DNA from: Eledone cirrhosa
Lineage: Eukaryota
Assembly (NCBI GenBank): GCA_964016885.1
Contig: CAXHJY010000725.1
Location: 62,001-126,000 of the forward strand
Direction: 5' to 3'
DNA length: 64,000 nucleotides
This document shows positions 69 through 62,778 of the stretch, one piece after another; the first letter of the stretch is position 1; each line of letters begins with the position of its first letter. The position numbers were made by a program, and so were the translations under genes. Under the pieces are notes generated by a model. That model was not told the origin of the DNA. It made no database searches and saw only the letters and a program-made list of their open reading frames with translations.

Positions 69-527
69 TATATACAGACACACACACATCACATACACTG
101 ACACACACACATATACACATACACTCAAGCACCCACATCAAATGGGCACATATATATATATATGTTAACATTTGTATATATTTTCAGTTAAGAACTTAGC
201 CAATGTTTACTGGAACTATTTACTCATACTCAACTGTAATTAAATAAATAATATATATATATTTATACAGAGATAGTGTCAGTAAGTTTGATAGATAAAC
301 AAATGAAGTGTGACGTTGCAGACTGGGTGTAATGTTTTGGTGAAATCAAAGTAAGAAGCATTAAATAGCCAGACAGATGGATTGATAGACAAATACCTAG
401 ATAGTTAGGTAGATAGATAGGCAGTCAGCTATTCTAACATAGATACAGATGATACTGAGAGATAGATAGATAGATATGGGTGGATGAATGGATGGAGAGT
501 GGGAGGGATGGATAGAGAGAAAGAAAA

Positions 528-1750: not shown

Positions 1751-1797
<47 letters not shown>

Positions 1798-1854
1798 TAA
1801 AAAAATAATGAATAAAACAATGAAACAGTTCCTTATATTAAACAAAAAAAGTTC

Positions 1855-2003
1855 ATTATTTAACGATCGTTTCTAGGATATATATGTGTTAGAATTGGCA
1901 TGCATATTCAACAGATCTATGTACAAAATTATACAAAATTATACAAACTATCAAAATTAAATATACATACCAAACACATATATATGCCGTCTTCAGAAAT
2001 AAT
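1855..2003 (-). ncRNA. Extended-stem-II hammerhead, family A
   Basis: ATTATTT-CTGAAGA-about 115 nt hairpin-GAAAC-GATC-GTT-AAATAAT. Confidence 0.72.
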
Positions 2004-2100
2004 TGTATTCATTGCATCTCTTCTTTCCATGATATCCGGATTACATTGAGTTCTTCATACGGATTGGACACTACCGTAAACTCTTGGTAGATTTATCTAC

Positions 2101-2136
<36 letters not shown>

Positions 2137-3915: not shown

Positions 3916-4310
3916 AAATAACAGGAGGCTGGACTGGTGTAATTCCTTAAAGGTTTATTATACTATGATCATTTCAATGACCGGGTTCAGTATGAATCCG
4001 GTGACATCATCAGGTATTCAAAATATAACAGATAAAATCCATGGGGCTGAAAATCGAAGACAAGAGGACGACCGACTATTTAGCAGCTTCTACCTCTGTC
4101 GGCCGACCTCAAGACTTCTACAGAGGTAGAAACTGCTAAATAGTTGGTCGTCCTCTTGTCTCTGATTTTCAGCCCCATGCATTTTATCTGTTATATTCCT
4201 TTGTTATATTTTGAATACCTGATGATGTCAATGGATTCATACTCAACCCGGTCATTGAAATGATCATAGTATAATAAACCTTTCAGTCCAGCCTCCTGTT
4301 ATTTTATAAT
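3913..4310. repeat. Fold-back PLE pLTR palindrome with an HHR in each arm (3960-4017 on -, 4215-4272 on +)
   Basis: Arms of about 185 bp are reverse complements. ATAC-CTGATGA...GAAA-TGATCA-TA-GTAT. Confidence 0.85.
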
Positions 4311-5879: not shown

Positions 5880-7100
5880 AGAACTACAAGTGAAGTCATT
5901 CTTTTCCTTACGGACCTTAATGTACGCACCCCTCGCACACCCACCATCTACTTCCTCCATAAAATACACAAACAAAATAATCCTGGCCGTACTATCGTTT
6001 CTGCGTGCAACTGCCCCATCGAGATAATTTCTGAATATTTAGACACCAAGTTCGCAACCGTTGGTCGGCAATCTCCTCTCCCACATCCACGTATACAAAT
6101 CATGCCCTTAGACTCTTCAACTCTTTCTCCTTCCCTCCTGCTCCCTCCCGCCATCTCTTTACCCTGGACATCACTTCTCTCTATACCGTAATCCCTCACG
6201 ATGACTGTCTCCGCGCTCTCCAGCATTTTTAACATTTACGCCCTACTCCTTACTCCAGCACTACCACTCTTCTCGGGGCGCCGTATGGCGGACCGTTTTG
6301 CCGAACATTTGAGGGACATACGACTCGGTTTGGATACTCCTGTCGTCCGTCATTTCTGTTCTCCTGGTCATCCTTCCCTACATGTTTCAGTCCTGGGTGT
6401 CCTTTCACATCATGGATCACAGGCCTCGCGCACCAGGACTGAACAAAGTCTGATTCACCGCCTTGGGTCCTATTCCCCTCTTGGACTCAACTCACCTACC
6501 CAATTTCTCTAATACCACATCCATTATCACACCCCTAGTTTCCTATCACTTTCTCTTGATCATTAGCAGCTTCTCTTACAACTAATACATGCCGACTATA
6601 TATGCTCACTCCACATTTCCCTTCACTGCTCTGTATACACACATACACACCCTTATATTAACATACTTTTGCTCATAGCTTCGTACTTACATGCACACAC
6701 ACTCTTTTACTCACATATACACACACATTTCTTCTTAGCTCCGTATAATAACACGCATACACACACATAAACATATGCTTATGCACGTGCACAAATATAG
6801 CTCTTTTTACAAAACGTTTTTTTTTTTCCATTTCAGGTAGACGCGCTCCATCATCCACTTTTCTAAAAAATAAATCATACACAAAACGCCAGCACCAACA
6901 GTTTTGCAAGAGATGTCAACATGAATGGACCTGTTATTTTTATTTAAAGACATTTTTTCGAATTCCATCCCACCCGTCCCCTCAATCTATTTTACTTCTC
7001 ATTCTTTCTTCTGATGAAGGACTAGCGTCCGAAACGTTAAGAACCTCTTCCTACTATATCAAGCGTTAACCTAATAAATACCTTCCACTGTACCCTATTA
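5880..7100 (+). mobile_element. Internally deleted Neptune-type PLE (RT fragment fused to endonuclease tail, 3' UTR, pLTR with HHR)
   Basis: RTPTIYFLHKIHKQNNPGRTIVSACNCP (RT), RRMADRFAEHLRDIR...RHFCSPGH...EQSLIHRLGSYSPLGLN (endonuclease C-terminus), HHR at 7006-7043. Confidence 0.85.
7006..7043 (+). ncRNA. Minimal type I hammerhead (related copies 14624-14660, 44628-44665, 44888-44920)
   Basis: TTCTT-CTGATGA-A-GGAC-TAGC-GTCC-GAAAC-GTT-AAGAA. Confidence 0.85.
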
Positions 7101-7233
7101 ATGACGTATTATTCCTTTTTTCCCGTTCTTCGCCAGCGAACGTTACCACGAACCAAAGTATCGTCTTCCTGTCTTCCTCCGGTTGCAACGTTTTTTGAAA
7201 TATCCAGTTCTGCGTCTACAGATTGACTTTGTT

Positions 7234-7284
7234 AGTTTCAGAAGATCCCGTTAAGGGTGAAAGCAGCGATTCTTTGCTTAAACT
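7234..7284 (+). ncRNA. Type I hammerhead with CAGAAGA (U4A) core; copies on - strand near 46910-46961 and 48587-48637
   Basis: AGTTT-CAGAAGA-TCCC-GTTAA-GGGT-GAA-AGCA-loop-TGCT-T-AAACT. Confidence 0.62.
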
Positions 7285-7387
7285 TTAATCTATTATTTTA
7301 ATAAATATTTGCTCTACGGTTCTTATATATTTGATATATATTTTCCTTATCGAGCCCTCTTTGGATTTTAGTCTTCAATTTTATTAT

Positions 7388-8139: not shown

Positions 8140-8989
8140 CAGGGGTTCTCAACCTGGTCCATGTGGACCACTAGTGGTCCACAGGAAAATTCAGGTGGTC
8201 CACAGAAAATTTTCAAAAGCAAATTCTTTATTGATCCATGCATTTGACTTAAAGCGCTGTTCCTCTTCTTCGCATATGTACGACTTCAGCTGCTTATTTT
8301 CGTAGATTTTTAGGCACTGCGACATGATAATAGCATTTTCTAATTCATTGAAAGAAAAACATCTACTGATGCTTATAAGTAGCAGTTCTATTACAAAAGA
8401 TTTAAAAGTTTAGGTGGTCAACAGGAAAAGTTTACTTATTTTGGTGGTCCACAGCGAAAAAATTACTTATTTTGGTGGTCCACAGGAAAAAATTACCTTT
8501 TTTGGTGGTCCACAGGAAAAAATTCATTATTTTGGTGGTCCACAGGAAAAAATTCATTATTTTGGTGGTCCACAGGAAAAAATTCATTATTTTGGTGGTC
8601 CACAGGAAAAAATTCATTATTTTGGTGGTCCACAGGAAATAATTCATTATTTTAGTGGTCCACAGGAAAAAATTCATTATTTTGGTGGTCCACAGGAAAA
8701 AATTCATTATTTTGGTGGTCCACAGGAAAAAATTCATTATTTTGGTGGTCCACAGGAAAAAATTCATTATTTTGGTGGTTCACAGGAAAAAATTACTTAT
8801 TTTGGTGGTCCACAGAAAAAAATTACTTATTTTGGTGGTCAAGAGGAAAAAATTAGTTATTTTGGTGGTCCACAGGAAAAAATTACTTATTTTGGTGGTT
8901 CACAGGAAACAATTACTTATTTTGGTGGTCCACAGGAAAAAATTACTTGTTTTGGTGGTCCACAGCGAAAAAAAGGTTGAGAATCCCTG
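8140..8989 (+). mobile_element. hAT (Charlie-like) non-autonomous element containing a 30-bp minisatellite
   Basis: TIRs CAGGGGTTCTCAACCT / AGGTTGAGAATCCCTG; left 8-bp target ATATAGAG. Confidence 0.88.
8430..8965. repeat. 30-bp minisatellite, about 18 units (TTTGGTGGTCCACAGGAAAAAATTCATTAT)
   Basis: Head-to-tail units without spacers; the GTGGTCCACAG core also occurs near the left TIR. Confidence 0.95.
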
Positions 8990-10961: not shown

Positions 10962-11006
<45 letters not shown>

Positions 11007-11010
<4 letters not shown>

Positions 11011-11135
11011 CTGAGGACGGCATCATGTATATGTGAAGGTATGTATATTTCCTCTGATAATTTGTAATATTTTTGCATAGATCTATATGATATACATACC
11101 AACACACATATACATCCCAGAAACGATCGTAAAAT
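11007..11135 (+). ncRNA. Extended-stem-II hammerhead, family A
   Basis: ATTT-CTGAGGA-about 100 nt hairpin (ATGTATATGTG/CACATATACAT, GGTATGTATAT/ATATACATACC)-GAAAC-GATC-GTA-AAAT. Confidence 0.72.
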
Positions 11136-11331
11136 GATGAATTTTTTAATATAAAGAACTTGTTCTTTGTGTTTATTTCATTGTTTTTATTAATATATAT
11201 ATATATATATATATATACATACAAGTATCGAGATACATGCGAGCGAGTCCAACCAATACCACTTTTGCTCAATGAAGGAGTTAATAATAATCAACGTTTC
11301 CTTTTCCCAAATATCTTCTGGAGAGAGATAG

Positions 11332-15093: not shown

Positions 15094-15917
15094 CTAGCAG
15101 TAAAGCCCGGCGTTGCCCGGGGTCGCTCAGTAGCTGTGTTAAAGTTACAATGTTAAGTTTCTTTCTTGGCTTAAAAACTGTAGTGTCTACTGTGCAGACT
15201 TGCATGTGGTGTTTTTGATTAATATTCCCTCAACCAACAATATGCCTTATGAAGTTAAGAAAACATAACGATAACCCGAATGTTATAACAAAAGAGGATG
15301 CTGGGGATAGAAACTGCACTGGTTATTTATTAACAAAGATCGAAAATGTAAACACTGCAACGCAGAGAAAAACATTAGCGTAACCAAATTATCAGTTATG
15401 TCTGTCTGCACGCCTATATCACCTCTCTGCACGACTGTCTGTCTGCACGCCTAACGACGAAATATTTGCTTGTTTTACGTAGTCTTTAAATAGACTTGTT
15501 TTCAAGTAAAAATATTGTTTTAAAATGCTTTTAAATGGAAATGAAGCAAAACGGAAGCTTAGTGTTCGAACTGATGAATTTTGCAGGTCAATATTTTGCT
15601 GGCTCGACGACAACTGTTCGTGTATTGTGTTAATGTCATTTTAAACGCTGAGAAAGCCAGCGTAATTTTTTACGTAAGACGCTCAATGTAAACAGAACAA
15701 AGGGAAATAACTGATAACTTATGCTCAAAAATCGATACATTATATTCGATTTCGTCACATAGGGTGGGTCAATTTGAAATATTTTTTTTCCGATGTCTTC
15801 GCTAGGGCTCAATGTACAAGTATAGCAATTTCGGTGCAATTCCGTGAGAGATTCTAAGAGGAGATGTGTGCCAAAAATGGATAGACAGACAGACAACCAC
15901 AGTTTTATATATTTAGA
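15094..15917 (-). mobile_element. Non-autonomous Helitron
   Basis: 5' TC, subterminal hairpin CCCGGGCAACGCCGGG, 3' CTAG, inserted at A|T; near-identical to 45063-45922. Confidence 0.88.
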
Positions 15918-27351: not shown

Positions 27352-27389
27352 TATATAAACATTATATATAAATATATATATATATAAAA

Positions 27390-28600
27390 TTGAAAAAGTG
27401 GAGAATAACATGGTCAACAGCACAAAAAAGGGGTTTTATTTGCAATCTAACAATTGTTTCACTGATAAAGTTGTCTAAAAATTGCTGAACACTAAAAGCA
27501 ATGCCAATCAATTTTAAATACGATGTTAGCCCGATCAGATCTTCGGAAACTGTTAAAAAAATATATATGTAACCGGAAAATTTACAAATTCAAATTACAT
27601 CATCAATAATAATATTAATAATAACGATATAGAGAGAAAAGGAGGAAGAAAGGGAGATCGATACAGTAAAGAAAGGAAAGAAAGGCGAAAGAAGAAGGAA
27701 AAAGAAAAAGAAAAAGGGTAAGAAGAAGAAAAAGGAGAAATTATTATAGATAAAAATATAAAGAGAAGATATATAGAAGATGATGGTAGACAGATGAGAG
27801 ACAAACATAAGTAGAAATAACGTAGGATAGAAAGAAGAATAGAGGGACAAATAAATGAATAAACGTTAATACATGAATAAATGTAAATAAAAATAAAAAT
27901 AGATATATAAAAAATATATGAAAAAATATGAGAAAATATATAAAAAAATTGCTAAATAAATAAATAAATAAATATATAAATTACATCTAATGTGATATAA
28001 AATGGTATAAAATGTGAAAAATGAAGAATAAAAATAAATACGTAAAAGAAGTAAAAATGTGCGAAGAATATTTAAACATATTAAAATTATTGAGAATGGT
28101 TTTTGAGAATTGTTAAAATATATGGAGAGATATTAAGGGGAAAATATGATAATGTTAAATATATTTATGTGTGTATTGGTTATTTTAATAAATAAATAAA
28201 TTAATTAGTTTTAAGTTATATTATATGATAAAATAAAATGATAGAGATGAAATAAATTTAGGGATAAAATATAAAGATAGAGAGTGAAAGATAGAAATGT
28301 ATAAAATAAGAATGTAAATGTAAGAGGTTTTGATGTTGTTCTTTGATAGATGATCACAATTATAATTATAATTATGATGATGATGATGCTGATAATGTGA
28401 TATCATAATAGATCCAAGTGGTACAATCTGGGTTATGGAATAGATAAGATGGAATTAACCTGGTCTAAAGTTCTCAAATTTAGTCGCCGATTTATGTCGA
28501 CAAAAAATAATTCTTTCAATTTTACTGTTAAGAGGAATTTTGTTGTAATTTAAAATTTGGAAAAGTTCCATATTACAGAGACCACAGTAGGACATTCCAA
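27390..28600 (-). mobile_element. PLE 3' fragment (endonuclease tail, 3' UTR, pLTR)
   Basis: The minus strand at 28458-28598 reads GMSYCGLCNMELFQILNYNKIPLNSKIERIIFCRHKSATKFENFRPG*, homologous to 29965-30105. The pLTR resembles 29140-29305. Confidence 0.82.
27443..27552 (-). ncRNA. Extended-stem-II hammerhead, family B (CCGAAGA core)
   Basis: CAGTTT-CCGAAGA-TCTGAT...about 80 nt...ATCAGT-GAAAC-AATT-GTT-AGATTG. Confidence 0.68.
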
Positions 28601-28604
28601 TTAT

Positions 28605-28992
28605 ATACAAATAGTAAAAACAATGAAATTAAACAACAAACGGTTAATTCATAGTAAAACCCATTATTTTACGATCGTTTCTGGGGGGTAGTTCCCCATA
28701 TGTTCATTCTATTATTGATCTATGTAAAATATATTACAAAATATCATAAGAAAAAATACATACGTCCTGACCACCCGCCGTCTTCAGGAATATTCATTAT
28801 TTCTGAAGACGGCGGGTGGTTAAGACGTTTGTATTTTTTTTCTTATTGTGATATTTTGTAATATATTTTACATAGATCAATAATAGAATGAACATACGGG
28901 GAACTCCCCCCCCCCAGAAACGATCGTAAAATAATGGGTTTTACTATGAATTAACCGTTTTTTGTTTAATTTCATTGTTTTACTATTTGTAT
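28605..28992. repeat. Fold-back palindrome of two family-A extended hammerheads (28662-28790 on -, 28795-28936 on +)
   Basis: Arms are reverse complements. The + copy has an 8-bp stem I CATTATTT/AAATAATG, CTGAAGA and GAAAC-GATC-GTA. Confidence 0.82.
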
Positions 28993-29139
28993 TTTTGACT
29001 CTGTATCCAATGAATAATATCATTGAACATTTTGTATTTTAAACTTTGCTTCATGACATCTTCTGCATACGGATTACATTGAGTTCTTCATACGGCCTGG
29101 ACCCTACCATTAATTGGTGGATTTATCTATATATATATA

Positions 29140-32100
29140 ATGAAAGATTGAAGAATAACATAGTCGGCTGTACAAAAACGGTTTTATTTCAAGAATTAAC
29201 AATTGTTTCACTGATCAGGTGAGTCTAAAGACCGCTAATCACTCGAAGTTGCGTCACGCGACCTTAAATACAGTGTTTACCTCTGATCAAATCATCGGAA
29301 TACTGGAGGGTTTACATATGGCATTGGTATATATATAGAGAGAGAGATACAACAGAGAATCAAAACAATAACATCAATAATAAAAGATAATGATAAAGAG
29401 GTAAAGAAGATAGAATGAAGATGGTACAGATGTAAAAAATATGTAAAAAAAATAATAAGTACAGAATGCGATTGCTGATAATAGTGGTGGTAGTTAGTAA
29501 GTGTATGTGTAAAGATAATACTAACATGAAAATCAACATAAAAAACATACAAATATACGTGGTGGTCAAATATCAGAGGGATAGAGTAGAAAATAAAAAG
29601 TAACAAATGACAGATAAAAGATAAAAATAATAAATTAAAAATTAAGTGAGAGGGGAAAAGACATGAGGATGAGACATAAGGGGTAGGGCTAAGGACGGCG
29701 AAGGAGTAGATAGGTAGATAGAGTTTAACAATTGAGAGGAAGAGTTTTGATATATGTGTGTGGTAAATTTCTAGCATGCTGATTGTCTTATCTTAATGGG
29801 GTTGATGTGGCTTTAGGGAGAGAGAGTGAAAGAAAGGTTAGATGTATGATGTTGATCTAGTGACCAGTCGGTCAGTTGACAGCTAATAACAGTGGGGTGG
29901 TATGTAGTTAGTACATTGAAATCCGGGTGGTTCAGTTCGAATTTTGGGATTGCTGGATCGAATCATGTTGGTTTGAAATTTGCGAACTTGGTAGCTGATT
30001 TGTGCCTACAGAAAATTGATCGTTCTATTTTGCTGTTAAGCAGCACCTTATCATACTTTAAAATATGGAACAGCTCCATATCGCAAAGTCCTCAGTGGGA
30101 CATTCCGTTGTTGTAGGCCCTTGCTCCCGAGAATTTCGACCAGCTAATCCCATATTCCTGGTTTGTGTCCTTAAGCTGCCAGATTTTATTGGCCAGCGTT
30201 GTTGAGTTCTCTAGTCTACGGTTCTTCATAGAGTATCTGTGAACGTACTATCTTTTTTTTAATTCACCAGCCGTGGAACCTATGTAGTGCCATGTTAAGT
30301 TGCCTGAATTTATAGTACACAGGTACACCATACTTTATTCCAGGCATCTATTTTGTAGTGGGCACTTATCCGGCAGGTGGCAGTTACAGTTGGAGGCCTT
30401 CCTGTGTGCAGGTTCTCCGTTGTGGTTTTGTATGTTGTTATGGATGGGCTAAGATTTAGGCTTATTAATGTTTTGTTGTGATGCGCCCTGATGTGTGTGT
30501 GTGGTTGTGATGTTGTTATGTGTTTGAGTTTTGTATTTGGTGCTATGGTGTATGTTGGTAGGTTATTTTCTTTAGAGATTATTTTGTAGTTGATTTTATC
30601 TATGTGTGATTCTATGTTGGCTGCAGTAGAGTAAGAGAGTTTGATAGTTTTTCTGTTAAAGGTTCTATGGTATTTGTGTAGTTTAGGGAAGTGTTTGTCA
30701 ATTAGCTTAAAGAATGTAGAAGGTAGTTTGGTTTTTTATAGAGGAGTTGAATATTGGATTGAACCATAGGTATTTCCTATCTCTGGGTTTTCTATAGTTC
30801 CTAGGGTCCCTATATTAGTATTCGGTTCAGTTATTTCTGGTGCTCGTCTATTTCTATGTTTAGTTCTATGTTTGTCATTTCTATAGGTGTGGGTAGTGTA
30901 GCTGTCGTTAGGTTTGTTGTTGCTGTTTCTATCTAGTATGTATTTGAGCCCCTCCTTATGGCCTGCCTTATGTAAAGCTATGTTATAGTCGTTTGCGTTT
31001 TCATTAAAAATCTCTAGGTTAGAAGATAGGCGGAATATTCTGAGGGATGTACTATGTGCTATGGAGTTAATTATAGATCGAGGGTGGTTTGAGGTATAAC
31101 TAACGTAGGCTAGATTTTCGTTATTTTTATGGAAGGGCTCTATTAGTCCTGTGTTTAGGTTGAGTGTTACTTCTAAGAGGTTTGCCTTTTTAGAGTTAAA
31201 TTCGAAAGTGATACTTAGGCCTAGTTTGTTGAAGAAGACTCTGATGTTTTGCCTTAATCTTTTTTTAGGTTTTTAGCTAAAAGGAGTGTGTCGTCTCTAT
31301 AAATTCCTCCTTGGAGGTTATTAAATTCCTTATGTAAGTTATGCGCTATATATATTCCAACTATGTCTGTTACCTGTGCTGAGTCGCTAGATCCCATTGT
31401 GATATCGAAGCTATTCTGTCTATTTTTTCGTTCCCAGTAACTATCTTCGAATCTAATGATAGTTCTCCTATCAGCTAGTACTATTCTAATTTCATCAGAG
31501 CTTCGGTCCGAGTTTTTCTGGGCAAAGGCTAGCGCTTTATCTAGGGTGACTGGGGAGATGGAGAAGTAGTAGTCGTTGATGTCAAACTGTACGAAGTTGG
31601 ATGTTTCCCAACTGTCTATTTTGTTGAACCAGTCTATTGCTTCGTTAGTGTTACCCCATAGCTTAATTACTAGTTTGTCCTTGATTTGTGCTATTACTCT
31701 ATCTAGTATATAATTCTATCTATATCCGACTTCGATAGGCATATTAATCTAATTGTGGCGTCTGTTTCGAAATTATTTTTATGATCTTTTCGGTTAAATG
31801 TGGGGTTACAAGGGGTTAGAGGCTCGGTTCTATCAGATATTTTCAGTTTTTTTTTACTATGCTAAGTCATTCCTTATTAATGCTAGTGAGGGCAGATTCT
31901 GTAGTTTTCTTGTATTTTTTGTGCAGTTAACGGCGTGAAAAGTTATTGTATGTATTAAGGCTCATGGTGTATACGTTTGATGTTTTGTCTGCTTTTACTA
32001 TAATACCGTTGGTGTTGCGTAGTTTCTTCAGCAGTGTATTGATGTCGTTTTGCAGTTGTACTTATTTTTTTAACTTATTTTTTACATCTGTACCATCTTC

Positions 32101-32518
32101 ATTCTATCTTCTTTACCTCTTTATCATTATCTTTTATAATTGATTTTATTGTTTTGATTCTCCGTTGAATCTCTCTATATATACCAATGCCATATGTAAA
32201 ACTTCCAGTATTTCGTTGATTTTTATCAGAGGTAAATACTCTATTTAAGGTGGAGTGACGCAGCTTCAAGTGATTAGCGGCCTTTAGACTCACCTGATCA
32301 ATGAAACAATTGTTAATACTTGAAATAAAACCCTTTTTTACAGCCGACCATGTTATTCTTCAATCTTTCACTATTATTACTCCAAGTATAACCTGCATAG
32401 GAATTCTCGCGAACTCGCTACCTAACTATGGAAACCTCTTGTTGAGTCAAACAAAGCCGTACGTTAAAACTATCCACAAACTCTAAATGGATTACCTAAA
32501 ATGATAACTTGTTATCCC

Positions 32519-36977: not shown

Positions 36978-37077
<100 letters not shown>

Positions 37078-37084
37078 ATATTTA

Positions 37085-37478
37085 GAGAAAGAGTGAAGAA
37101 TAACATGGTCCGCTGTACAAAAAGGGTTTTATTTACAGAATTAACAATTGTTTCATTGATCAGGTGAGTCTAAAGGCCGCTAATCACTCGAAATTGCGTC
37201 TGACGCAATTTCGAGTGATTAGCGGCCTTTAGACTCATCTGATCAATGAAACAATTGTTAATTCTGTAAATAAAACCCTTTTTGTACAGCGGACCATGTT
37301 ATTCTTCACACTTTCTCTACTATTACTCCAAGAATAATCTGCATGGGAATTCTCGCAAACTCGCTACCTAACTAAGGAAACGTCTTGTTGAGTCAAACAG
37401 CGCCATACGTTAAAACTATCCATAGTACAAAGTACTCACTAACTCTAACTGGATTACCTAAAACGATAACTTATTATC

Positions 37479-37552: not shown

Positions 37553-37716
37553 CGAAGGAAATGTGGTAAGTAAGGAACCAGATGGACCATAACGCACCAA
37601 AATACTCAATACTTAGGGTAGTATAGTGGGTAATTGGAACGAGTAGGACCCCGACGAGTAGCTCAGCCGTCGGGTTCCTACTCGTTCCTATATATATATA
37701 TATGCGGAACAGGAAG

Positions 37717-37749
<33 letters not shown>

Positions 37750-37809
37750 CATATATATATATATATAAAGAGAGAGAGAGAAGTAGAATGCTGGAAGGTA
37801 ATATCCGTA

Positions 37810-39010
37810 GTGGTAGAACACTTAGTCCATGTCCATGTCTCTAGCGTAGATTTCTTAGACATTAATTTAGACCATCGCACACATACCTTCAGACCCTTCC
37901 ATAAGCTAAACGAAAAACTTAATTACATACACAAGGACTCGTGCCACCCTCCTACTGTTTTTAGAAACTTCGTAAATAATATCAGTACTAGAATCTCTAC
38001 CCTCTCCTCTAATAAGGTTATCTTTGACAGAGCAGCACCCTACTATAACACGCCGTTAGCTAACAGCGGCTTCTCGCAACCAATTACTTACTCCCCCACT
38101 AACAACAACAGCAATAAGAAATCGTAACAATAGACAAACTATCTGGTTCTCTCCTCTCTTCTCACTCAACGTTAAAACTAATGTAGGAAAACAATTTTTA
38201 GCCCCCTTAGACACTTTCCCATAGGTCACAAATACCGCTCCATCTTTAACAGACACAGAGTAAAACTAGGGTACTCCTGCGCTAAAAATATGAAGGCCCA
38301 CATCACCAACCGTCCTAAGAGCGGCACCCCACCAGGATGCTCTTGCAGAATGCCTGAAGCTTGTCCCCCTCAACAGCAATGCAACACACCCGCTGTAGTT
38401 TATGAAGCTGTGGTCACTTTCAACTGACCAAATCAACCACAGGAGGTCAAAACCTATGTGGATATGGCGGAGGGCCGATTTAAGAAACGCTTCTTGAACC
38501 ATCAGTTGACCTTTAGGTACCCGGACAAACGACCATCCACGAAACTCGCGAGCCACGTATGGTCACTCAAGGACTCAGGTATAGACTACCCCATTCAATG
38601 GGAAGCCATCACTAAGTCCAAGCTGTACGTAAGGGGCAATCCTTCTTGTAGACTATGTATTGAAAAAAGGTTAAATAAGGAGATTATGCAATAGCGATTA
38701 CCTAAATTCAACAGAGGAAATCTTCTTACGTTGTCCATATGTCTGGAAACACCTCTTGCATAACTACAAAGCTCCGGATTGAATAAGAACAACATTCTAA
38801 TTTTCTAATCAACTCGAACTTCTTTTCCGGACTCTCGCAGTTATCTTCCTTAAACCTTTCGCCGTGGCATTGTATCTCTTGGGTGAAGTGACCGTTTCTG
38901 CGCATGCGTGTTCATACGGTTGTTCTTCCTGTTCCGCATAACCATGACCAGTCCGAGCTGAAGATCCGCTAAGGTGAAACAATTATTCTCGGTATGGTGA
39001 ACTAAATGTT
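37810..39010 (+). mobile_element. 5'-truncated decayed PLE (RT thumb + GIY-YIG + pLTR with HHR)
   Basis: VDFLDINLD...YIHKDSCHPP; VVYEAVV...YVDMAEGRFKKRFLNH...CRLCIEK; HHR CCGAG-CTGAAGA-TCCGCTAAGGT-GAAAC...CTCGG at 38953-38992. Confidence 0.85.
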
Positions 39011-45062: not shown

Positions 45063-45922
45063 CTAGCAGTAAAGCCCGGCGTTGCTCGGGGTCGCTCAGT
45101 AGCTGTGTTAAAGTTACAATGTTAAGTTTCTTTCTTGGCTTAAAAACTGTAGTGTCTACTGTGCAGACTTGCATGTGGTGTTTTTGATTAATATTCCCTC
45201 AACCAACAATATGCCTTATGAAGTTAAGAAAACATAACGATAACCCGAATGTTATAACAAAAGAGGATGCTGGGGATAGAAACTGCACTGGTTATTTATT
45301 AACAAAGATCGAAAATGTAAACACTGCAACGCAGAGAAAAACATTAGCGTAACCAAATTATCAGTTATGTCCGTCTGCACGCCTATATCACCTCTCTGCA
45401 CGACTGTCTGTCTGCACGCCTATATCACCTCACTGCACGACTATCTGTCTGCACGCGTATATCACCTCTCTGCACGACTGTCTGTCTGCACGCCTAACGA
45501 CGAAATATTTGCTTGTTTTACGTAGTCTTTAAATAGACTTGTTTTCAAGTAAAAATATTGTTTTAAAATGCTTTTAAATGGAAATGAAGCAAAACGGAAG
45601 CTTAGTGTTCGAACTGATGAATTTTGCAGGTCAATATTTTGCTGGCTCGACAACTGTTAAAGCCAGCGTAATTTTTTACGTAAGACGCTCAATGTAAACA
45701 GAACAAAGGGAAATAACTGATAACTTACGCTCAAAAATCGATACATTATATTCGATTTCGTCACATAGGGTGGGTCAATTTGAAATTTTTTTTTCCGATG
45801 TCTTCGCTAGGGCTCAATGTACAAGTATAGCAATTTCGGTGCAATTCCGTGAGAGATTCTAAGAGGAGATGTGTGCCAAAAATCGATAGACAGACAGACA
45901 ACCACAGTTTTATATATATAGA
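45063..45922 (-). mobile_element. Non-autonomous Helitron, second copy with expanded 37-bp internal tandem repeat
   Basis: Same termini and sequence as 15094-15917; extra units at about 45372-45495. Confidence 0.88.
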
Positions 45923-47859: not shown

Positions 47860-48312
47860 GTATATTTTTGAAACGGTGCGCGAGTTTGAAATTAGAAATT
47901 AGAAATTATAAGCTTTCACCGTATTTTAGACTAAAGAAATTAGAAGCTCCCGGATAGTGGGGTTACTAATTTTATTATTGGTCTATTATGCAAATTAGTG
48001 TCGGAGAGGTTTTAATCTCGTACATTTAAATTAAGCCGTTGGAATAGGCTTAATTTAAATATACGGGATTTAAACCACTCCGACACTAATTTGCATAATA
48101 GACCAATAATAAAATTAGTAACCCCACTATCCGGGAGTTTCCAACCGACATGGTCGCATTCTTTAAGGGTATGTCAATATTTGTTTATAAAACTGATCTA
48201 TATTATATTTTATCTGATGAAAGCGCACCATAATTTGCTTTGGTGTCCTTGAAATATGTATAATGAAATAAATATGGTTTTATAAATATAGTTTCCATTT
48301 GTTAATATATTG
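47860..48312. mobile_element. PLE 3' relic with an approximately 195-bp fold-back (47945-48140) and HHR
   Basis: Inverted arms; the downstream part matches 41281-41450. Confidence 0.72.
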
Positions 48313-58532: not shown

Positions 58533-59655
58533 TCTATATATATATATATGAAGGAGGTGAGTTTTATTGTAGTACAATAAAGCAATGCAGATATCGGATA
58601 AGAAGCACTCTACAGTTTGTAGGACTGGAGTATACTTAATATATAAGATCAAAAGATGGTTAAAAGAGTTCCATGTATTTTATTATGCGCATTTCAAAAA
58701 CAAATAGCATCATGCAATAACATTTGTGTTTTCATCAGATAAAATAGGAAGACATGATATGAAGGTTAAAAAACACTTGTGGATAGTGCAGTTTTAAATC
58801 AACATATGAAAAGTAGTTTTAGATTGATGTGTGATATTGCAGAAATTTTTTTTGAGGGGGGGGGGGTGTGGAAAGGATGAAAAAGAGGAGGAGATGAGAG
58901 TAAAAAGTGGAGGGGGAGGAGTATAATGAGGAAGGATGAGATAGGAGGAGAGATGGGTGATAGAGAGAGAGAGATAGCTTTTATAACTGAGAAAAGTATA
59001 TTGTTTTACATAGAGAGGTTGAAAAACCGTTGGAAGATAATGTATAAATTAAAAAAATTTGAAAATTAACGAAGAGAAAAATAATGTAAACTTCAGGTTT
59101 GTATATTGAAGGGTTTAATAATATGTGCGATGAAAAGAAATTGTTAATATGTATTAAGAATAATATTTAAGGGTTTAATAATATGTGAGATGGAAAGAAA
59201 ATGTTGATATGTATTATTAAAAATAGCAAAGGTAATGTAAGGATATATTGTGAAAAAAAATAGAAGATAGGATGAAACATGAAAGTGAGAAAAAAATAAT
59301 GAATTGAGGATGAATAATTTAACGTCAAAAAAATGTTTATGTTTACGAAGGATTTTTTCAAGGTGATATAAAGTAAGAATATATTGTATTGTGTAATAAT
59401 TGTTTCTATGTTAGGCACAGTGAGAAAAGGTACAGATTAGGGGTTAGAAATTAAAAGAAAAAGAAAAGAAAAGGAAAAGGAAGAAAGGGAAGTGATAAAT
59501 AGGAGTGATATAGAATGAGTAACAAGTATTATATAATGTATAATAAATAACTTTGAAATAAGGTAGAAAGATGGGTATATTTTTAAAGAAGTATATATAT
59601 ATATATATATATGTGCCTTTGAGAAAAGGATTCTGAATTGCTAAAGTTTAGGATA

Positions 59656-62054
59656 TTAGCTGTATACTTTATGGAATGTTCTGTGGAATTTATGCAAGCA
59701 GAGAGAAAACAAGTCAGTGCGTCTATTTATTATAGAATCTAAATTAGATATAATGGTAAATTTTTCATTTAGACAGAGATTGCAAGTCTTGGATAGAGAA
59801 CTGTTCAAGTATGAAGCAGCAGAAGAAACCTTTTTCCAAGAGATGTTATATTTAATATTTTTGTCTTTCAAGGACCATATGAGTTCTGAGAGAGCCGTGT
59901 TGGTTCTTTTAAGTTGGTATTTAAAAGACGAATGATGATTATAAAGACGAGCTTTAAATGAGGTGGAAGTGGAGCCAAAATAGGTGAAGGAATTGGTATC
60001 GTTATAACTTTACATTCGTAGATTAAGTTTTTATCAAGACAATGGTTGTTGAGAGGACATTTATTTTTAGCAGGGCAATTGCAATTGCGATTAGAGAGAT
60101 TATTAACGAGTGACCTAGTGTTATCTATAGAAGGAATTGGATTGGAGAAGTTATTTGCGATAGGAATAATAGTTTCATGATTTAGAATGGGATTAAGAAC
60201 ATTTAGCGAAGTTGTGTTTGACGTTGTATTTGGGTTTGCAGAAATTAGCCTAGAGTTTACAATGACGTCGGGAGTGCTATTACTAGTATTATGATATTCA
60301 GTGTTGGAAGGAAGAGATTTAGTATTTAGTATTTTATTGTTGTGTTTAGAGATAATGTTGGAAATGTTGGAGGATGTCGAATAGGAAAATGTTATAGTGT
60401 GTTTGTTAAATATTTTACTATAGATATGTGAGGGAGGGAAGCATTTATTTAAGGCACTAAAGAATAATTTAGGAATATTATTATTAATAGAGATGGAGAA
60501 AGGAGCATTATACCAGATTATGTTTTTGTATCTAGGTCTTTTATTAAAGTTATTGGAATGATCATGATTAATTATTCTACTGTAAGTTCTTCTAGAATTT
60601 GTTTCTTTATTATATTTGATTTTATCAGGATAGCCGGCTTTAGAAAGCGCGTTATTATAGTAATTGGCGTTAGCATCAAAGATGTTTTTATTAGAAGATA
60701 GGTTAAATATTCTTTTTCCAATATTACTAACTATAGCATTCTTAATATTAGTAGGGTGGTTAGATTTAAAATTAACATAATTTAGGTTCTCATTGTTTTT
60801 ATGGTAAGGGTAATATAGGCCAGTGTCAAGATTAAGAGATACATCCAAGAAATTAGCTAGTTTGATGCTGTTATCAAATTCAATTTTTAGGTTATGTTGG
60901 ATAAAGAGATTACGTATATTGTTCTTAATAATATTAAGGTTAACTATGTTGCAATTTAAGATAGTAAAGAGTACATCGTCACGATAAATTCCACCGCGAA
61001 GTTGAGGAATTTTCCGACTCAAACAGTTCAAAATAAAGATACCAATTAAATCTGTCAATTGGGATGAATCGGATGCTCCCATTGTGATGTCGAAGTTGTT
61101 AGAGGTATCAGCTCTGGTCCAATATTCATTGTTGAACTCAAGGATGGTTTTACGTGCGGTGAGAATGATGTGAAGTTCATCTGTGGTGATGTCAGAATAT
61201 TTAAATGCGAAAGATAGAGCATTGTTGAGAAGTGAAAGCGAAATAGAAGAATAGTAGCTGGCAATATCAAATTGAACAAATTTTAGTTTGTTTTTATTAT
61301 TCAATTTGTTGAACCAGCCAATCACTTCAGAAGTACCAAACCATAAATTTAAGTTCAAAGAAGAGCAATTAGAACGAACCTGTGGGATAATTCTATCCAA
61401 GATGGCTTTACTAACAACCCCCAGATCTGATTTAGAGGGGGCTATTAATCTAACAGGTAGTTCAGTGCGAAAATTGTTTTTGTGATCCTTGAGATTTATC
61501 CTCGGAGTTCTTGGGAGGAATGGTTCGGTCTTTTTTCCGATGCCAAGTTTTGACATAATCTCAGAGGCTTCAAAGTTTATGGATTCTAAATTATCATGGT
61601 TGGTTTTACGATATTTTTTCCTAAGTTCCTTTATGATAAGGTTGTTATAATTATCCTTGGAAATACCATATAAATTATTGGTTTTGTCAGAGTGGACTAA
61701 AACATTTTTTGAGGAATTTAGGTTTGAAATTGTGTTCTTGAGATTTACAAGGTGCTCTTGTCTTTTGTAAGGGTATCTCTTGAATTTAAGATTTTTTATA
61801 ATATTTGTTAACTCTTCCTCGAATTGCACTAGATTTTTGTTGGAAGGAGGATTTCTTCTAGAATTAAATAGATGATCGAGGAAGTTATGTTTCTTGGTAT
61901 AGAAGTTCCCTTTTAGGCACTGGTCATAGAAATAAGCTATCCATCTAAGTCTTCTTACAAAGGAGTCAGTTTTTTCAATTAGAAGTTTGGTGAATTCAGA
62001 TTTACCAGGTATAGGAATGTCTTTAGTTGAATTGGTTATGTTGTAATAATCCAT
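59656..62054 (-). CDS. Penelope-like element polyprotein (RT + C-terminal GIY-YIG endonuclease), one frameshift near 60001
   Basis: The 728-aa ORF has PLE RT motifs FVQFDIASYYSSI, FDITMGASDS, GIYRDD and FLDVSLNL, then CNCPAKNKCPLNNHCL and NLIYECKV. A shifted frame continues TYFGSTSTSFKARLYNH...CNLCLNEK...CLH to the stop at 59656. Confidence 0.93.
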
Positions 62055-62778
62055 GTTGTAGAAGAAAAAGGTAAAGGACTATCAAAAGGTATATAATATG
62101 AGAGTTAGCGCTCAACAGTTAAGGAGCAAGTTAATGTAGGAGGTGAGTTTTATTGTAGTACAATAAAGCAATGCAGATATCGGATAAGAAGCACTCTACA
62201 GTTTGTAGGACTGGAGTATACATAATATATAAGATCAAAAGATGGTTAAAAGAGTTCCATGTATTTTATTATGCGCATTTCAAAAACAAATATCATCATG
62301 CAATAACATTTGTGTTTTCATCAGATAAAATAGGAAGACTCCATCGCACATATTATTAAACCCTTAAATATTATTCTTAATACATATTAACAATTTCTTT
62401 TCATCGCACATATTATTAAACCTTTCAATATACAAACTTTAACTTTACATTATTTTTCTCTTCGTTAATTTTCAAATTCTTTTAATTTATACATTATCTT
62501 CCAACGGTTTTTCAACCTCTGTATGTAAAACAATATACTTTTCTCAGTTATAAAAGCTATCTCTCTCTCTCTATCACCCATCTCTCCTCCTATCTCATCC
62601 TTCCTCATTATACTCCTCCCCCTCCACTCTTTACTCTCATCTCCTCCTCTTTTCATCCCCCCCCCCCTCAACATTTTTTTCTCCCTAATATCTCACATCA
62701 ATCTAAAACTATTTTTGATATGTTGATTTAAAACTGCACTATCCACAAGTGTTTTTTAACCTTCATATCATGTCTTCC

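Follow-up and report, generated by a model that had tools for sequence, protein, structure and literature searches.

Is an arm of about 100 nt, parting the two core halves of a hammerhead, an RNA domain maintained by selection or mere ballast? This question is raised by a 64-kb stretch of Eledone cirrhosa DNA (the whole of which is hereafter called the window), in which the initial annotation had noticed four such hammerheads, with conserved core halves, a pairing stem I in three copies and stem II hairpins that differ in sequence while remaining paired, and had concluded that selection maintains an extra structured domain inside the ribozyme.

Four hammerhead copies in the window

The pattern CTGARGA-N90..120-GAAACGATCGTW has exactly four matches in the window, at 1996-1862 (-), 11011-11131 (+), 28787-28670 (-) and 28803-28928 (+), and none in 100 shuffles, which bears out the conserved core halves where they had been noticed (Table 1). 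No fifth window copy was detected by a sequence-only family model (four matches with E<=1e-17, the next at E 0.018). The type I core, CUGANGA ... GAAA ... UH, is present in 4/4 copies. The layout is that of three helices with stem I open, namely a stem I of 5-10 bp with compensations, a stem II rod and a stem III that either has 2 bp or forms in a dimer, the palindrome ACGAUCGU having a predicted self-duplex energy of -10 kcal/mol. The base of stem II in the window copies is a C·A mismatch, instead of the canonical G10.1-C11.1. Stem I does pair in three copies (8 bp at 28803(+), 7 bp at 1996(-) and ~5 bp at 11011(+)) and is broken at 28787(-), where its 5' strand was lost at the junction of the pair.

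The claim of differing but pairing arms is borne out. The proposed helices were found in the 11011(+) copy (GGTATGTATAT/ATATACATACC), in the 1996(-) copy (GGTATGTATATTTAA/TTGAATATGCATGCC) and in the 28787(-) copy, which keeps GGGTGGT/ACTACCC and CGTATGT/ACATATG, but the same helices have decayed in the 28803(+) copy (CGTTTGT, ACTCCCC). Folding is better than that of shuffles for 1996(-) and 11011(+) (z -6.3 and -5.0, respectively) and no better for the two copies in 28662-28936 (z -0.9 and -1.1), which represent one head-to-head insertion of two decayed copies. Since two of the four are decayed twins of a single insertion, the window copies alone cannot show covariation.

Table 1. Features of the four hammerhead copies (positions in the window)
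Positions	Strand	Feature	Basis
1789..2003	-	Young F1b pLTR copy, 99.5% to L330; core 1996, 116-nt arm, GAAAC 1873	
2008..2133	+	Tail-only arm, inverted, attached to the 1996(-) copy	
11006..11227	+	Solo F3 pLTR copy; core 11011, 102-nt arm, GAAAC 11120; (TA)n flanks	
28605..28792	-	F4 pLTR copy without tail, left arm of pair; core 28787-28781, 99-nt arm, GAAAC 28681	
28794..29122	+	F4 pLTR copy and PLE 'tail', right arm of head-to-head inverted pair, (TA)n end	blastn 87% to natural F4 copies L101/L104 over 28794-29139 including TA run; tail end by eye
28795..28802	+	Stem I 5' strand; pile-up site for young-copy 5' ends	
28803..28809	+	Core 5' half CUGAAGA (C3-A9)	
28810..28916	+	Stem II arm, 107 nt, decayed: C·A, 2 bp, C·C, long helices, apical domain	
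28850..28878	+	Apical domain, conserved: GAU/AUC, 4x3 internal loop (AUUU/UAG), UGUAA/UUACA hairpin	
28917..28928	+	Core 3' half GAAA, palindromic stem III ACGAUCGU and H17; predicted cut after 28928	
28929..28936	+	Stem I 3' strand	

Other repeats in the window are recorded here in their own right. A second long-arm family, without seen sequence likeness to the first, lies at 29298-29198 (-), with a partner at ~32220-32340 (+), at the 3' end of a broken Hydra-type element (29132-32400); it has CCGAUGA, an 82-nt arm and GAAAC-AAUU-GUU, its 3' pattern matches the genome 1,661 times, and many of its copies carry C at position 4, like family F8. Inverted fragments ending inside the 82-nt arm occur at 37065-37315 and ~27373-27552; near 27460 there is also a diverged relative of 79 nt (+ strand coordinates). 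Broken Hydra-type ORFs at 29960-32050 (-), 59674-62078 (-) and 37627-38700 (+) are, by piece, 27-63% identical to the F1 protein; the first was rejected as partner of the 28605-29122 pair because it belongs to a different hammerhead family, and the second carries hammerheads of its own, with 36-nt arms, at 58738(-), 62324(-) and 62787(+). Hammerhead-like motifs of several families, with a stem II of 11-36 nt, are found at 4013(-)/4219(+), 10769(-)/10776(+) and 41199(-)/41351(+), several of them head-to-head, and also at 48214(+), 23744(-), 7011, 14629, 38958, 39488(-), 44890 and 1153. The repeated CTGATGA ... GAAAT motif at 15571-15716 and 45614-45722 (+), with 126- and 89-nt spacers and no evident stem I, is probably another repeat rather than a hammerhead. 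A tandem array of a ~33-bp unit at 8414-8980 has an open frame encoding a repeated peptide, and elsewhere in the genome (G000:C1:435195436-435198240) a 38-bp tandem array derives from the apical F8 arm.

The host element and the ends of its copies

Judged by sequence, the four copies are type I hammerhead motifs in the pLTRs of Hydra-clade Penelope-like retrotransposons (PLEs). Exact matches to the 17-nt 3' half number 15,750 in the 3.0 Gb genome, against 1 for the control, and a variant 3' half pattern has 1,718, against 34 (both count halves, not whole ribozymes). One locus, L032, is a whole element with 100%-identical pLTRs (280-694 and 6960-7374) and a hammerhead in each, as expected from the earlier attribution to PLE pLTRs; between them lie an 813-aa ORF and a 3.7-kb microsatellite-rich 3' UTR. 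This unusually long UTR (L032:3425-6960) is retained in full-length young copies. Insertion into (TA)n is seen at the 3' flank of L032 and in the window copies. Non-LTR retrozymes, which consist of tandem 170-400 nt repeats that do not code for protein and contain canonical hammerheads, were rejected as an identity, the copies in the loci examined being pLTRs of coding elements, solo or inverted.

The ORF contains RWR (37), DKT (115), YRDD (346), CxCx5C (CNCRNKTNC, 673), VY..YIG (693), CRLC..E (771) and CNH (799), and lacks GxKF/Y and, as judged by eye, CCHH; by motif only, it is thus a single ORF with reverse transcriptase (RT) together with a C-terminal GIY-YIG endonuclease, the position of which rules out a Naiad. 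This motif set fits the Hydra clade as defined in the accessible part of one report (Craig et al., 2021; PMC8557442), and membership rests on these motifs. The unit length of 6.7 kb in F1 departs from the <3 kb of the Hydra elements published there, a tendency in that source and no strict criterion. No Pfam match was obtained for two ORFs, and the ORF has 118 relatives at 31-48% identity, 117 of them without a name. With 86 scored ORF matches at 99-100%, devoid of internal stops, F1 is by sequence identity a young family. At several loci, the F4, F8 and F10 hammerheads lie ~0.9-1.3 kb downstream of the ends of related ORFs on the same strand.

The ends of young copies bear on the template RNA. 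Among the first 100 matches listed, 81 F1 copies are anchored downstream of the cut site; 26 extend at least 500 nt upstream and 55 are truncated, 31 of which begin within -133..-122 of G12, with a peak at an A seven bases before C3 (~9 of these 31 are paired arms of single insertions), and 0/81 start at the cut site (+12). Their 3' ends fall at +76 in 42/81 and at +211..215 in 35/81, counted from G12 among the same matches. This pile-up of young-copy 5' ends at the stem I 5' strand is newly described here and, together with the lack of starts at the cut site, suggests that the unit RNA likely has stem I and the hammerhead at its start and is copied in uncut form. AATAAA or ATTAAA is found directly upstream in 81/87 upstream-intact copies, across families. 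The 5' pile-up is blunter in older families, 8/30 F4 and 3/25 F10 copies sharing <10 nt upstream. An excess of cap-derived extra G was not significant (7/27, p 0.13), so a start site is not told apart from a processing site or microhomology. Several copies (L020, L040 and run contigs) are 5'-joined to one foreign sequence ending GTAGAAACA, and others to a foreign sequence ending CAGACCTGTA; these shared junctions possibly reflect repeated insertion into the AT-rich tail of another repeat, or chimeric subfamilies.

Covariation and known relatives of the stem II arm

From fetched loci, 172 distinct units were obtained, 135 in 12 motif-defined groups and 37 outside any group; F6 (five copies, mixed) was dropped, and F9 (three copies, one-base offset) was excluded from the tree test. 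Arms measure 93-116 nt and are 34-93% identical across ten families. Family profiles are better than shuffles at p<=0.01 in 8/11 cases and at p 0.02 in F8, the arms of F7 (p 0.14) and F10b (p 0.055) being not significant. When RNAalifold was given an alignment made from sequence alone, it missed the arm, the families being misaligned, and anchored pairs, read at fixed core distances, were used in its place: stem I 1-8, stem II 2, 3, 5, 6 and 7 (picked after inspecting the table) and 3-8, 11/14 of which vary. In the null model, each side was simulated independently, from a paired root, on a family tree derived from the same sequences.

Across ten families, 107/110 cells are paired at the 11 variable pairs, versus 71 ± 8 under the null (0 of 20,000, a P value that is overstated because columns are treated as independent, while one template switch may alter several neighbouring pairs). 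Double changes are seen at 9/11 variable pairs (null 2.5), and 49/50 cells of the stem II subset are paired (null 28.6). Rare within-family changes at paired sites break the pair in 259/404 cases. In F10, U3-A8 replaces C3-G8 in 22/22 copies and two stem I pairs are compensated, which argues that the core halves stay coupled across the 107-nt insert. In F8, 7/11 copies read at the expected register have C at core position 4, which is expected to weaken the core.

Some irregularities are as persistent as the helices. A C·C mismatch at arm position 4 is kept in 9/10 families, and a 4x3 internal loop (A-N-U-W / U-A-G type) in 10/11, with a 5x3 variant in F5 and a pairing probability of at least 0.83 in 9/11 family profiles. 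The closing position of stem II is C·A in six of ten families, A·C in one and Watson-Crick (U-A or A-U) in three, in contrast to the R10.1-Y11.1 pair that is typical, though not universal; a natural U·U closing stem II is known (PMC3088659, in its accessible part), and mismatches at this base are common in the published Hydra rows consulted (PMC8557442). The predicted hammerhead fold lies <=1-5 kcal/mol from the best fold in 9/11 families. The larger sample therefore covaries well beyond the tree-based null, supporting both earlier proposals, pairing kept under sequence change and an extra domain under selection; this pairing, with the persistent C·C mismatch and 4x3 loop, suggests that the arm is probably a selected RNA domain and not inert. 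Matches elsewhere were set aside: a single metagenome match is without stem I, 85 viral matches (on average 1.6/5 stem II and 3.2/8 stem I pairs) were taken to be chance hits and served as a control, and the contigs of runs labelled organisms B and C contain only short fragments, which do not suffice for covariation across species.

How does this architecture compare with known hammerheads? In the accessible part of the report on Hydra-clade PLEs (Craig et al., 2021; PMC8557442), the hammerheads are likewise type I in pLTRs, with an unpaired or mismatched stem II base, a short near-palindromic stem III, (TA)n targets and an RWK/DKT/CxCx5C signature. As the initial annotation had stated for PLE hammerheads in general, their stem II is short, with inserts of <=26 nt in 26 File S2 rows and stems of 3-7 bp, compared with 93-116 nt in the present families; among the non-canonical PLE rows, the longest insert is ~54 nt. 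The Hydra-1_oBim hammerhead is different and short, and the 3' half motif is absent from the text of the supplement, in which line breaks could mask a match. Metazoan PLE minimal hammerheads share the pLTR location, palindromic stem III, predicted dimer activity, the U3-A8 core variant (in Schistosoma) and opposite-strand pairs 100-700 bp apart, but their helix II has 7-8 bp with a conserved G10.1-C11.1, in contrast to the multi-helix rod with a C·A, A·C, U-A or A-U base found here (accessible part of Cervera and de la Pena, 2014; PMC4209133). Discontinuous Clec2 hammerheads, in which a long insert also parts the core halves and evades standard searches, are in mammalian mRNA 3' UTRs and were searched for with inserts permitted in loop 1 or loop 3; the accessible text describes no stem II rod that is conserved (PMC2950038).

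No Rfam hammerhead model matched, either in 28600-29350 (17 matches at E<=10) or in six loci at gathering thresholds, and no hammerhead is among the 150 of 195 matches listed for the whole window, which are only hairpin/miRNA noise. No description of a 100-nt stem II in PLE hammerheads was found in the literature searched, most subscription papers lying outside this coverage. Neither Rfam nor that literature thus yielded a model covering the architecture, and the concern that descriptors with short loops could miss this class proved justified. Both the ribozyme and its retroelement clade are known, and the arm appears to be an extension that had not been modelled before.

A proposed role for the arm

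The reading that we favour, with a probability of roughly one half, is that the rod would serve as a protein grip and folding scaffold at the 5' end of the RNA, with cleavage being slow, dimeric via ACGAUCGU and protein-assisted. The RNA would start ~7 nt before C3, with the hammerhead as its first domain, and AATAAA just upstream would end the preceding unit near the same place. Reverse transcription would begin internally, at +76 and +213 from G12, and often run off at the 5' end, which would generate solo pLTRs and head-to-head pairs such as 28605-29122. The RNA copied would be uncut. Predicted cleavage after GUA/GUU is probably slow and would depend on a second copy pairing through ACGAUCGU, and probably on protein. 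The C·C mismatch and the 4x3 loop would be the likeliest recognition points, either for the element's own RT-endonuclease or for a host dsRNA-binding protein. As a catalytic enhancer, the rod is probably less apt than as a protein-binding and folding handle. According to the accessible part of the study of Poseidon PAc in Anolis (Frangieh et al., 2024; PMC11167929), the hammerhead of this PLE required protein for cutting, and insertion did not depend on the hammerhead. As proposed here, reverse transcription started from two internal sites bounding the tail; as among the F1 copies, no ends fell at the cut site, and head-to-head products are plausible. PAc belongs to a different clade, its short stem II overlaps the ORF start, and its tail has 30-40 bp, against ~137 bp here.

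That the arm is instead a tolerated by-product, fold-back and template switching creating and re-repairing a loop 2 hairpin while only the core is selected, seems rather unlikely. These elements do produce inverted junctions constantly, stem II length varies freely among the window hammerheads (11-13, 27, 30-36, 82 and ~100 nt), singleton deletion arms (21-86 nt) occur, and the antisense arm roughly matches or exceeds the sense arm in folding in F2 and F5 and comes close to it in F4, F7 and F8. Hairpin repair should, however, erase mismatches, whereas the C·C (9/10 families) and the 4x3 loop (10/11) persist. Furthermore, length is held at 93-116 nt even where arm identity is only 34-47%, F1 arms show a strong strand asymmetry (-42 vs -21 kcal/mol), and short-arm versions have not been amplified, only 3 shortened F1 arms being found genome-wide versus 8,799 F1 pLTR marks (a weak argument, because amplification depends on few master copies).

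The donor-like hexamer at arm positions 18-20 in 7/7 group I families (GTATGT in five, GTAAGT and GTAGGT), with CATAG 42-54 nt past it, and with CTAAC in F10, raises the quite unlikely prospect that the arm hides a retained mini-intron, its 5' splice site masked by pairing, which would explain how PLE introns survive an RNA stage; a 75-bp intron lies 46 bp after the start site in D. virilis Penelope (accessible part of PMC2377424). Yet the length is very short for an intron, F5 and F8 are without donor, the F7 donor would destroy stem II, many copies of the window's second long-arm family have lost the donor, and neither a spliced F1 copy genome-wide (gapped patterns do work) nor a joint at the donor/acceptor sites in six contig sets was found. 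It is very unlikely that ADAR lands on the arm and adjusts the ribozyme by editing A15.1 and A11.1, the latter lying in a UAG context across from C10.1, although weak A>G signals suggest editing: run X4 has A>G at 358 of 2,354 depth (17 contigs) at A11.1 and at 464 of 2,514 at A15.1, against 0 in X2 and <0.02% in X3, and rare sense-strand changes in genomic arms are A>G in 24/3,687 and T>C in 11/4,393 (p 0.01; downstream control p 0.63). The X4 library, however, is of unrecorded type and from a sample different from X1-X3, contigs yield no true frequencies, an earlier, differently bounded A>G count gave p 0.07, G is rare in genomic copies (2/139 at 11.1, 0/139 at 15.1), and editing could arise incidentally from long inverted pLTR duplexes. 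A regulatory switch, in which the 5'-terminal rod would bind the element's own protein and recruit ADAR, and editing at the junction mismatch/A15.1 or donor masking would decide whether the RNA is cut, spliced or copied, is unlikely. As for a fast monomer ribozyme, the arm replacing the loop 1-loop 2 contact (for example by AGAUC pairing with loop 3), GATC does occur apically in the arms of group I and F8, but there it is itself paired, and in F5, F7 and F9 it differs with loop 3 remaining GAUC, and no F1 copy among the matches listed starts at the cut site, making this highly improbable.

The wider question is why PLEs carry hammerheads, the one element tested having needed no cleavage and having cut only with protein. 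Here is a young family with intact ORFs, a covarying domain within the ribozyme, natural core variants (U3-A8 and C4) and thousands of copies marking the ends of the template RNA, which makes the questions of protein assistance and transcript ends directly testable. In addition, counts of hammerheads that rely on Rfam or on descriptors with short loops overlook >15,000 motif halves in a single genome.
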